In this document: piece after piece, positions 3,663-36,018 of the stretch | Position numbering within the stretch: the stretch's first letter is position 1 | Layout: each line of letters opens with the position of its first letter | Assembly: GCA_035491955.1 (NCBI GenBank) | Contig: DATJJU010000003.1 | Span: 15,306-79,305 of the forward strand | Length of the DNA stretch: 64,000 nt | Direction: 5' to 3' | Source: Minisyncoccota bacterium | GTDB taxonomy: Bacteria > Patescibacteriota > Minisyncoccia > Phycocordibacterales > UBA9973 | Notes under the pieces: generated by a model | Told to the model about the DNA's origin: nothing | What the model saw: only the letters and a program-made list of their open reading frames with translations | Databases searched by the model: none | Made by a program: the position numbers and the translations under genes

Positions 3663-3746
3663 GTTGCGATTGTCGCAAAACACTTCCAAAAGGCCAGACC
3701 CCGCCCAGACCCCCTTTGGAAGTGTTTGTGCTTTAATCGCAGCAAC
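3663..3746. repeat. REP-like compound palindrome, ~12-14-bp stem around an 18-nt C-rich loop (CCAGACCCCGCCCAGACC), between rpmE and prfA
   Basis: aaacacttccaaaagg ... cctttggaagtgttt inverted repeat with outer gttgcgatt / aatcgcagcaac arms; the loop shares CAGACCCCG with the palindromes flanking the transposase at 35.1 kb. Confidence 0.6.
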
Positions 3747-4692: not shown

Positions 4693-4770
4693 TGCGGACT
4701 TTCCAAACATATTCCCAAAAGGCCAGACCCCGCCCATACCCCTTTTGGAAACATGTTTGTCCGGTTTTTG
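4693..4770 (+). terminator. REP-like palindrome with the same CCAGACCCCGCCCATACC loop, followed by a T-run; probable prfA terminator
   Basis: caaacat...ccaaaagg / ccttttgg...atgtttg stem, then gtccggtttttg; near-copy of the 3663-3746 element. Confidence 0.55.
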
Positions 4771-35052: not shown

Positions 35053-35072
35053 TCCCCCTCATTTTCTTTCAT

Positions 35073-35102
35073 TTAGCAATGGGGTCAGACCCCGTTGCTA
35101 AA
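35073..35102. repeat. REP-like imperfect palindrome TTTAGCAATGGGGTC-A-GACCCCGTTGCTAAA at the 5' flank of the transposase gene
   Basis: Inverted repeat with one mismatch read directly. Confidence 0.7.
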
Positions 35103-35164
35103 TATTCAAATATGTTGGATAAAAATTTAAAATTATTTGATCTCTGTTTTGCAATAATGAAAAT

Positions 35165-35713
35165 ATGGCCAGGAAACCTCGTATTGATGTAGGCGGAGAA
35201 TTTTATCACGTACTTAACAGGGTTAATGCTCGTGTAAAAATTTTGTTTACGGACAAAGAATATTTAATGCTTGAAAAAATACTGTGTGAAGCAAAATCAA
35301 GATTTAACATGAGAATAATCGCTTACTGCCTTATGCCCAATCACTTCCATTTGATTCTCTACCCTCTTAAAGATGGAGATATGCAGAAGTTTATGCATTG
35401 GATTACATTTATGCATGCACAATTATGGCACAAGGAACACGGTACCACAGGGACAGGTCATTTATATCAAGGAAGATACAAATCCTTTCTTATAAAAGAT
35501 AGCAGACACCTTATGGCTGAATTAGTCTATGTGGAAAGAAATCCTGTAAGAGCAAAACTAGTCGATAAAGCGATTCATTGGAGATTCTCAAGTGCAAGAC
35601 ATAGATTTGGAAGTAAAAATAAATTAATAACAGATATTCCAATTGAATTCCCAGAAAATTATAAAGATCTCCTTAATGACAATATATCTTTAAGGAATGT
35701 CAACGGGGTCTGA
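35165..35713 (+). CDS. IS200/IS605-family Y1 (HUH) transposase, REP-associated tyrosine transposase (RAYT)-like
   Basis: HUH motif MPNHFHLIL and catalytic Tyr region YQGRYKS; 182 aa; flanked by GGGGTC-N-GACCCC palindromes. Confidence 0.8.
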   Translation: MARKPRIDVGGEFYHVLNRVNARVKILFTDKEYLMLEKILCEAKSRFNMRIIAYCLMPNHFHLILYPLKDGDMQKFMHWITFMHAQLWHKEHGTTGTGHLYQGRYKSFLIKDSRHLMAELVYVERNPVRAKLVDKAIHWRFSSARHRFGSKNKLITDIPIEFPENYKDLLNDNISLRNVNGV

Positions 35714-35722
35714 CCCCGTTGA
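35700..35722. repeat. Perfect 11-bp-arm palindrome TCAACGGGGTC-T-GACCCCGTTGA overlapping the transposase stop codon (3' flank)
   Basis: Exact inverted repeat; the TGA stop lies inside it. Confidence 0.8.
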
Positions 35723-35727
35723 CTCAT

Positions 35728-36018
35728 TTAGCAGATTTTTATCACCATAAAGAATCGGTAGCAGACAATAACGAGTGCGCTCAGGCCAACTAAAATGGTG
35801 AAGAGATCAAATGCTTTCATGGTTAATTTCTCATGAGTGACATATGCTGGAATAGTAAGCAATGCACTAATACCAGTGAGAACGCCGAATACGTTGTACG
35901 AGCTTCGATTTGAGAGACAGAACGAATAGTTTTGACCAATACCTTTGAAGAGCCAGAGTGCTAAAAAGACATATGTGAGAATAAAAAATATATAGCTATA
36001 GCGATAAAACCATTTCAT
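35728..36018 (-). CDS. Small hypothetical membrane protein (3 TM) downstream of the NRAMP gene
   Basis: Hydrophobic ~96-aa ORF abutting the NRAMP stop. Confidence 0.35.
   Translation of the reverse strand: MKWFYRYSYIFFILTYVFLALWLFKGIGQNYSFCLSNRSSYNVFGVLTGISALLTIPAYVTHEKLTMKAFDLFTILVGLSALVIVCYRFFMVIKIC

Follow-up and report, generated by a model that had tools for sequence, protein, structure and literature searches.

A RAYT-like HUH/Y1 gene between inverted palindromic ends in Patescibacteria DNA, probably a single-gene TIRtron

What kind of genetic unit is a small transposase-like gene that stands alone between two hairpin-forming palindromes? This question is raised by a locus near 35 kb in a 64,000-nucleotide stretch of contig DATJJU010000003.1 from a Minisyncoccota bacterium (Patescibacteria; the whole stretch is called the window below), where a gene of the HUH/Y1 type encodes a protein of 182 amino acids (aa). 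The original prediction for this locus had pointed to a REP-associated tyrosine transposase (RAYT), a Y1 enzyme linked to repetitive extragenic palindromic (REP) sequences. Di Nocera, De Gregorio and Rocco (2013; PMC3733652) described RAYT-like genes that are flanked by terminal inverted repeats (TIRs) and not by REPs as TIRYTs, and the corresponding units as TIRtrons. Our analysis indicates that positions 35069-35733 are probably a single-gene TIRtron, in which a RAYT-like (TIRYT-type) HUH/Y1 gene lies between inverted copies of its cognate end. Both ends of the window copy have turned into strongly self-complementary palindromes. The unit belongs to a large Patescibacteria family, where a left end 33-51 nt ahead of the ATG and a stop codon inside the right end are the usual arrangement.

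The two ends of the unit are inverted copies of each other, with 20 of 21 nucleotides identical when positions 35077-35097 were compared with the reverse complement of 35701-35721. The left palindrome has 16-nt arms with one T.G mismatch (94% complementary), and the right palindrome has 12-nt arms with no mismatch. The centre of the right palindrome is the TGA stop codon of the Y1 gene (35711-35713), which is also the TGA of CTGACCCC in the right-end motif, and the palindrome encodes the final residues VNGV together with the stop. GGGGTCAG was found exactly twice in the 64 kb, at the two ends of the unit and facing outward. GGGGTCWGACCCC also occurred twice, against 0.01 expected, and both occurrences were at the unit ends. 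When folded as single-stranded DNA (ssDNA), the left end gave -13.7 kcal/mol (z = -7.4) and the right end -13.1 kcal/mol (z = -5.5), the z values being relative to shuffles. The 10-bp direct repeat that flanks the unit is the longest word common to both flanks, and none of 200 shuffles reached that length. The original prediction was confirmed in that a 182-aa HUH/Y1 gene lies between related hairpin palindromes, in that the 3' palindrome is perfect and overlaps the stop, and in that no second insertion sequence open reading frame (ORF) is present between the host genes flanking the unit. The coordinates are collected in Table 1.

Table 1 Features of the transposase unit and of the hairpins at prfA, with the basis of each assignment (AF2, AlphaFold)
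Feature	Position	Strand	Basis
RAYT-like (TIRYT-type) HUH/Y1 gene for an ssDNA endonuclease/transposase, 182 aa	35165-35713	+	ORF list, Pfam, NCBIfam, alignment, AF2 model
Left end, 33-nt near-perfect palindrome ATTTAGCAATGGGGTC-A-GACCCCGTTGCTAAAT	35071-35103		Inverted-repeat scan and folding
Right end, perfect 25-nt palindrome GTCAACGGGGTC-T-GACCCCGTTGAC	35699-35723		Read directly and folding
GGGGTCAG core motif of left end, outward-facing	35081-35088	+	Motif search of the 64 kb
GGGGTCAG core motif of right end (CTGACCCC on plus strand)	35710-35717	-	Motif search
Left copy of 10-bp direct repeat TCATTTAGCA, immediately outside left end	35069-35078	+	Read directly
Right copy of 10-bp direct repeat TCATTTAGCA	35724-35733	+	Read directly
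Two related hairpins bracketing prfA	3678-3727 and 4704-4759		Folding and sequence comparison

Subsequently, the protein was compared with family models and solved structures. The protein starts with MARKPRIDVGGEFYHV and contains MPNHFHLIL and YQGRYKS, and Y1_Tnp was its only Pfam domain (E 5.6e-15). The NCBIfam model REP_Tyr_transpos (NF047646) was aligned over its positions 2-146 of 146 with 70.8 bits, which does not reach the cut-off of 80, and the NCBIfam IS200 model gave no match at E <= 0.01. Close relatives scored 74-79 bits on REP_Tyr_transpos versus 17-23 bits on the IS200 model, for which the cut-off is 55. When a profile of the family was compared with solved structures, E. coli TnpA_REP (4ER8) was matched at E 1.7e-7 and ISDra2 TnpA at 0.06. 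For the AF2 model of the window protein (pLDDT 86), the top Foldseek match was again 4ER8 (E 1.9e-8, TM 0.67/0.73, full chain), followed by IS200-type TnpA proteins at about 1e-4 over roughly 115 residues. The HUH motif is H60-F-H62, and the putative nucleophile is Y122 within YVERNPVRAK; every column that is invariant in 57 homologues, including H60, H62 and Y122, is present in the window protein. The exact protein is recorded only from this contig, in its NCBI (81 kb) and JGI versions.

The locus could be read as an ordinary autonomous insertion sequence of the IS200/IS605 family that carries tnpA only. Y1_Tnp is titled 'Transposase IS200 like' in Pfam, the unit is small with one gene, and the catalytic core fold and a presumed need for ssDNA and folded ends are common to the window protein and the TnpA proteins of IS608 and ISDra2. 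Nevertheless, we consider this reading very improbable. In addition to the model scores given above, which do not bear out the grouping with ordinary IS200 TnpA that had been named as a possible refutation, the similarity to these TnpA proteins is weaker, with both sequence and fold nearer to TnpA_REP. The ends of the window unit are inverted copies of one sequence, whereas IS200/IS605 ends are distinct, non-identical left and right subterminal hairpins without inverted-repeat symmetry. Furthermore, a direct repeat flanks the window unit, whereas IS200/IS605 elements make no target duplication; these elements are also usually multi-copy and often carry tnpB, whereas the window holds one copy.

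On the evidence of sequence comparison and the structure model, the protein sits on the RAYT side of the Y1 family, as neither a canonical RAYT nor an ordinary IS200 TnpA. According to Nunvar 2010, RAYTs are marked by a conserved N-terminal Thr and by NP(L/V)(R/K)xG after the catalytic Tyr. The window protein is not a canonical RAYT, because the Thr column in the alignment with 4ER8 is occupied by His15, which is invariant in the family, and because the second motif reads N126-P-V-R-A-K, in which Lys replaces Gly. Its N-terminal signature is YHV.NR. When the unit is set beside RAYT/TnpA_REP genes with their REP, bacterial interspersed mosaic element (BIME) or REPIN sequences (Nunvar 2010; Bertels and Rainey 2011; Ton-Hoang 2012; Messing 2012; E. 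coli YafM, 4ER8), the HUH plus Tyr Y1 fold and NP(L/V)(R/K) after the Tyr are common to both, TnpA_REP is the closest match in sequence and fold, and in both cases a gene, here probably single-copy, is bracketed by inverted hairpin-forming repeats. The window unit differs in the score under the NCBIfam equivalog cut-off, in the replacement of Thr by His and of the Gly of NPxRxG by Lys, in palindromes without a GTAG tag, and in having no high-copy dispersal within the 64 kb.

We then asked how far the inverted ends extend among the relatives of this gene. A protein search gave 2,095 relatives at E <= 0.001, and those named belong to Patescibacteria groups. Most of them are about 224 aa long and end in ...GRPKKG[TSG]; the GRP core of this tail resembles an AT-hook, but Pfam gave no match, and this reading was set aside. 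Homologue loci were taken from assemblies (8) and metagenomes (80), and 73 of them could be tested for both motifs. With a strict end pattern, which required GG[GT]G[AT]CAG upstream of the gene and the complementary motif either at the stop codon or immediately downstream of it, both motifs were found to bracket the gene in 57 of the 73 Patescibacteria loci. The same motif pair came up almost everywhere when the upstream and stop regions were searched in an unbiased way for their best inverted repeat. The upstream half of the family end reads AAA(T)GGGGTCAG-NNNCC-(A)TTT, with its complement at the stop; the outer 8 nt stay constant, and the inner 5 take the forms GTACC, CCACC, GAGCC, GAACC, ACACC and ACCCC. 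GGGGACAG and GGTGTCAG are further variants of the motif within the family. The position of the ends is also conserved: in 48 of the 57 loci, the distance from the start of the left motif to the ATG is 33-51 nt, and in 35 the TGA inside CTGACCCC is the stop codon (the motif ends 4 nt beyond the ORF end), which is the register of the window. Extra right motifs were present within 300 nt in 16 of the 57 loci and extra left motifs in 11, and at least 12 Patescibacteria loci had extra end copies 0.4-1.4 kb from the gene. In the family alignment, it is the sequence of the right repeat that determines the terminal codons AAA GGT ACC TGA.

The family ends are partly self-complementary around the A of TCAG, and offset 7 covaries as AT or TA (75% paired versus 44% in shuffles). 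Typical family ends fold at -2.3 and -4.9 kcal/mol, no better than shuffles. Strong hairpins were accordingly rejected as a family-wide property, despite the partial symmetry and the one covarying pair. The family-wide feature is the pair of TIRs; as a variant of this, the window copy has ends whose inner half has become exactly complementary to the outer half. The same complementarity of inner and outer halves was seen in the ends of two other homologue loci, L046 and L018. The RAYT arrangement originally predicted holds for the RAYT-side protein (REP_Tyr_transpos, 4ER8) and for the inverted hairpins that bracket the gene, while the arrangement itself is that of a TIRYT/TIRtron and not of a canonical REP/RAYT unit. 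The accompanying statement that the unit has no TIRs is contradicted by the near-identical inverted pair in the window and by the GGGGTCAG...CTGACCCC inverted repeats in the 57 homologue loci.

Copies of the palindrome were also sought elsewhere in the window. No further copy was found in its other ~63 kb, which bounds the density of the palindrome in this genome at roughly <1 per 21 kb. The 9-mer CAGACCCCG is found again at 3695 and 4724, where the original prediction had seen the core of the palindrome reappear around prfA and had taken this as a sign of dispersal in the genome. The 9-mer, however, is placed in a C-rich unpaired loop of 18-20 nt, CCAGACCCCGCCCA[G/T]ACCCC, which is common to the two prfA hairpins. 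The stems of these hairpins are AT-rich, differ between the two yet stay complementary, and are unrelated to the unit palindrome, and neither hairpin has a complementary GGGGTC arm. Since only the 9-mer is common, the prfA hairpins were rejected as dispersed copies. They are another repeat family and therefore provide no evidence of dispersal, and nothing in the 64-kb window supports dispersal of the palindrome. The first prfA hairpin lies about 25 nt before the prfA start and the second just after the stop, before tRNA-Ile. No counterpart of their loop was found in 210 fetched loci.

Next, species-representative genomes were scanned for GGGGTCAGACCCCGTTG, and at least 118 loci were obtained. 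The source genome was not among the matches listed, and the counts in this paragraph apply to those matches. They came from Gaiellales, Iamiaceae, Planctomycetota, Acidobacteriota, Clostridia, Prevotellaceae and one Saccharibacteria genome. Several genomes had 4-9 exact copies of the palindrome, and its 13-nt core reached up to 13 copies per 8 kb. The stem was extended by at least 3 of 4 further pairs in 50 of 124 occurrences, compared with about 6 estimated by chance, and the outer stems differ from genome to genome. Only 2 of the 118 loci had a Y1 gene. At both of them (L090, Iamiaceae; L127, Planctomycetaceae), the gene is bracketed by the palindrome as in the window: the sequence of the upstream copy is ...CAA[T/C]GGGGTCAGACCCC..., and downstream the palindrome either overlaps the stop or comes immediately after it. 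These Y1 proteins are 295-333 aa long, are 26-30% identical to the window protein and also carry the YHV.NR signature; the L127 protein had faint helix-turn-helix (HTH)-like matches below the threshold, and the L090 protein had Y1_Tnp alone in Pfam. Taken together, these comparisons identify the palindrome, in other phyla, as a genuine REP-like partner of TIRYT-type genes that can disperse. Neither GGGGTCAGACCCC nor GGGGTCTGACCCC was found in the literature searched. Arrays of GGGGTC[AT]GACCCC with 5-13 copies in 0.2-3.3 kb were observed in high-GC genomes (L101:730-4018, L137:7543-7942, L119, L163), and these dense arrays are reminiscent of BIMEs.

These results bear on the canonical REP/RAYT explanation, according to which a single-copy domesticated RAYT spreads GGGGTC-N-GACCCC as a high-copy REP/REPIN family in this genome. 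The RAYT-like protein, the inverted orientation of the two palindromes, the clustered multi-copy palindromes that bracket Y1 genes in other phyla and the extra end copies near the gene in Patescibacteria loci are all in keeping with it. We nevertheless regard it as unlikely, given that the rest of the window contains no added copies, that the prfA hairpins are a different repeat, that the protein scores under the equivalog cut-off and that both RAYT marks are altered. In addition, no GTAG or CGTC tag was found at the stem foot in either palindrome or its immediate flank.

Signs of mobility were sought in related genomes. In two syntenic contigs, L209 and L210 (Nramp 87% identical), the order Nramp-DoxX-x-ApbE-x-VTT is kept with no Y1 gene, and the Nramp-DoxX gap is 265 bp versus 967 bp in the window. 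Directly after Nramp, the window has a gene for a 96-aa predicted membrane protein (35728-36018, minus strand), which was missed by the JGI gene call and is conserved after Nramp in the Patescibacteria contigs L211 and L223 (61-68% identity). Downstream of its homologue in these contigs lies a different gene, so that they offer no empty-site comparison. On the minus strand, the right copy of the direct repeat forms the last codon and stop (TGC TAA) of the 96-aa gene. When 35079-35733 was excised in silico, the stop of the small gene, 20 nt with a GAGGGGG ribosome-binding site and the start of doxX were left, and the empty junction is predicted to read ...ATCTGCTAAATGAAAGAAAATGAGG.... The window copy thus looks like an insertion into a 20-nt operon spacer between the small membrane-protein gene and doxX, because a syntenic relative is without the unit and a 10-bp direct repeat flanks it.

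The left palindrome has a further relation to this repeat. An inverted copy of the direct repeat from the flanks, TTGCTAAAT (35095-35103), forms the inner arm of the palindrome and lengthens it. The word (T)CATTTAGCA accordingly occurs three times, with the two direct copies outside the unit and the inverted copy inside. This arrangement resembles a target duplication with a complementary 'guide'; known Y1 transposition does not account for it.

Changes at the ends were also observed in other members of the family. At L062:3234-3431, an internally deleted, gene-less copy with intact ends lies 1 kb from a full copy. It has two left ends and one right end, and between them 25 N-terminal codons are joined near the C-terminal codons. 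Behind this deleted copy comes a run of ATGACCCCATTTCC-like half-sites. At the locus of the protein P0056, six contigs were aligned, and the gene was identical in all of them while only the ends differed. The 64-bp right-end unit, which combines the right repeat with the gene's 3' end and with 7 nt of flank, was present once, twice or at least three times (the last in L217, across a run of Ns; L213-L222, e.g. L217:3100-3420). The copy number of the 15-bp left half-site unit, GGAATAAAGGGGTCA, varied too.

The P0056 locus also bears on another explanation, that the window gene is a resident domesticated gene, immobile today, whose palindromes are regulatory sites acting on duplex DNA or RNA; the upstream palindrome would be an operator for autoregulation and the downstream one a terminator or an mRNA-stabilising hairpin. 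The near-fixed position of the left motif before the ATG, the right motif over the stop, the single locus of P0056 in all 24 contigs read, and symmetric sites that are compatible with dimer binding would suit this view. Terminator and promoter roles of the palindromes were rejected, since a terminator scan gave no terminator-like site, promoter-like matches were no commoner than in shuffles, and no T-run follows the right hairpin. This explanation is also at odds with the syntenic site that lacks the unit in relatives, with the internally deleted copy, with an end-unit copy number that differs between strains and, among the matches listed from other genomes, with a palindrome that has no Y1 gene near it in 116 of 118 loci. 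We judge it quite improbable.

The TIRtron reading was then compared with the published systems. GGGGWSAS is a motif of many TIRs in PMC3733652. Self-complementarity and overlap with the 3' end of the gene are each described there for some TIRs, and some belong to repeat families of moderate abundance. Quentin et al. 2018 (PMC6006769) equated TIRYTs with TnpA-Y1 subclass 2.1, which has a long C-terminal HTH-like extension (Bac_DnaA_C, HTH_23 or HTH_28). In the literature searched, the term 'TIRYT' was confined to these two papers, and no mention of Patescibacteria members was found. The window unit has the same organisation, with a RAYT-like Y1 gene alone between TIRs. The GGGGTCAG of its ends fits the published GGGGWSAS and faces outward at both ends, its repeats are self-complementary, and the right one overlaps the 3' end of the gene, as in some published TIRs. 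The YHV.NR signature, with His for the RAYT Thr, is common to the window protein and the bracketed Iamiaceae and Planctomycetaceae Y1 proteins. On the other hand, the window protein, at 182 aa, has neither an HTH nor a DnaA_C-like domain at its C-terminus, the repeat of the Patescibacteria family usually incorporates the stop codon, and a direct repeat of 10 bp flanks the window copy. Apart from the missing C-terminal domain, the unit corresponds to the TIRtron definition; it is of the known TIRYT/TIRtron kind, as a Patescibacteria-derived member without that domain.

By analogy with the biochemistry of TnpA_REP and IS200/IS605, the unit may work as follows. In an ssDNA state, for example on the lagging-strand template, each end would fold. 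The enzyme would recognise the folded end together with the GGGGTCAG motif and would cut nearby, with Y122 forming a 5'-phosphotyrosine link and the H60/H62 site binding the metal. Once strands are rejoined, the cassette or derivatives without the gene would be expected to move rarely, and end units to be duplicated or deleted locally at high frequency. The observations made here are the Y1 fold with its catalytic residues, the conserved inverted ends, the presence or absence of the unit at the syntenic site, and variation confined to the ends.

Several points weigh against the TIRtron reading and this scheme. No TIRYT biochemistry was found in the literature searched, and cleavage sites, strand preference and the use of hairpins by TIRYTs are presumed from analogy. 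Recognition of hairpins is not assured, because typical family ends fold no better than shuffles, and the palindromy could reflect a symmetric protein that binds duplex DNA. Most relatives end in ~45 residues that are absent from the window protein and from the two relatives closest to it (64% identity), and the C-terminal HTH domain of subclass 2.1 is missing: no HTH or DnaA_C-like C-terminal domain was found with Pfam in the 182-aa protein or in relatives of 221-223 aa. The comparison of flanks with relatives, which had been proposed with the original prediction, did yield syntenic sites without the unit, but the intergenic DNA of L209 and L210 is too diverged for an empty-site alignment at the nucleotide level. 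These contigs also lack the small membrane-protein gene, and therefore loss in the relatives could explain the difference instead of gain in the window. Y1 transposition of the IS200/IS605 type makes no target duplication, and the 10-bp repeat is a misfit in this respect. Target-site duplication was rejected as a rule of the family, with significant flank repeats in only 2 of 55 loci, the window and L046; in the latter, which also has perfect palindromic ends, the flank repeat is 20 bp long and resembles the 3' end of its own gene. Finally, P0056 was found at the same single locus in all 24 contigs read, which are from different samples, and it therefore resembles a resident and perhaps domesticated gene more than an active transposon.

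In a broader reading, which we put forward as a tentative idea and with more doubt than conviction, the Patescibacteria TIRYT branch would be large, undescribed and still active on its own ends, and GGGGTCAG would be a recognition code conserved as far as Actinomycetota and Planctomycetota. If this is true, the traces of activity are the copy changes of end units, the gene-less deleted copies and occasional insertions with flanking duplications; GGGGTCAG has been kept although the proteins are only 26-30% identical; and it is by taking the perfect GGGGTC-N-GACCCC form seen in the window that a TIR becomes a REP-like hairpin able to disperse. The Patescibacteria family suits the study of end recognition by RAYT-like proteins and of the birth of REP-like repeats. 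It is convenient as a system because it is large, with compact proteins and short defined ends, and because its variants run from weak repeats to perfect palindromes. For annotation, the gene and its flanks are best labelled as one TIRtron-type unit, as neither an IS200 element nor a REP system. Elsewhere in the window, a perfect 42-bp palindrome, CCATAGGTCTTTCCTATGGAG/CTCCATAGGAAAGACCTATGG, with smaller palindromes nested in it, was observed at 1156-1197 in the spacer of two plus-strand ORFs.

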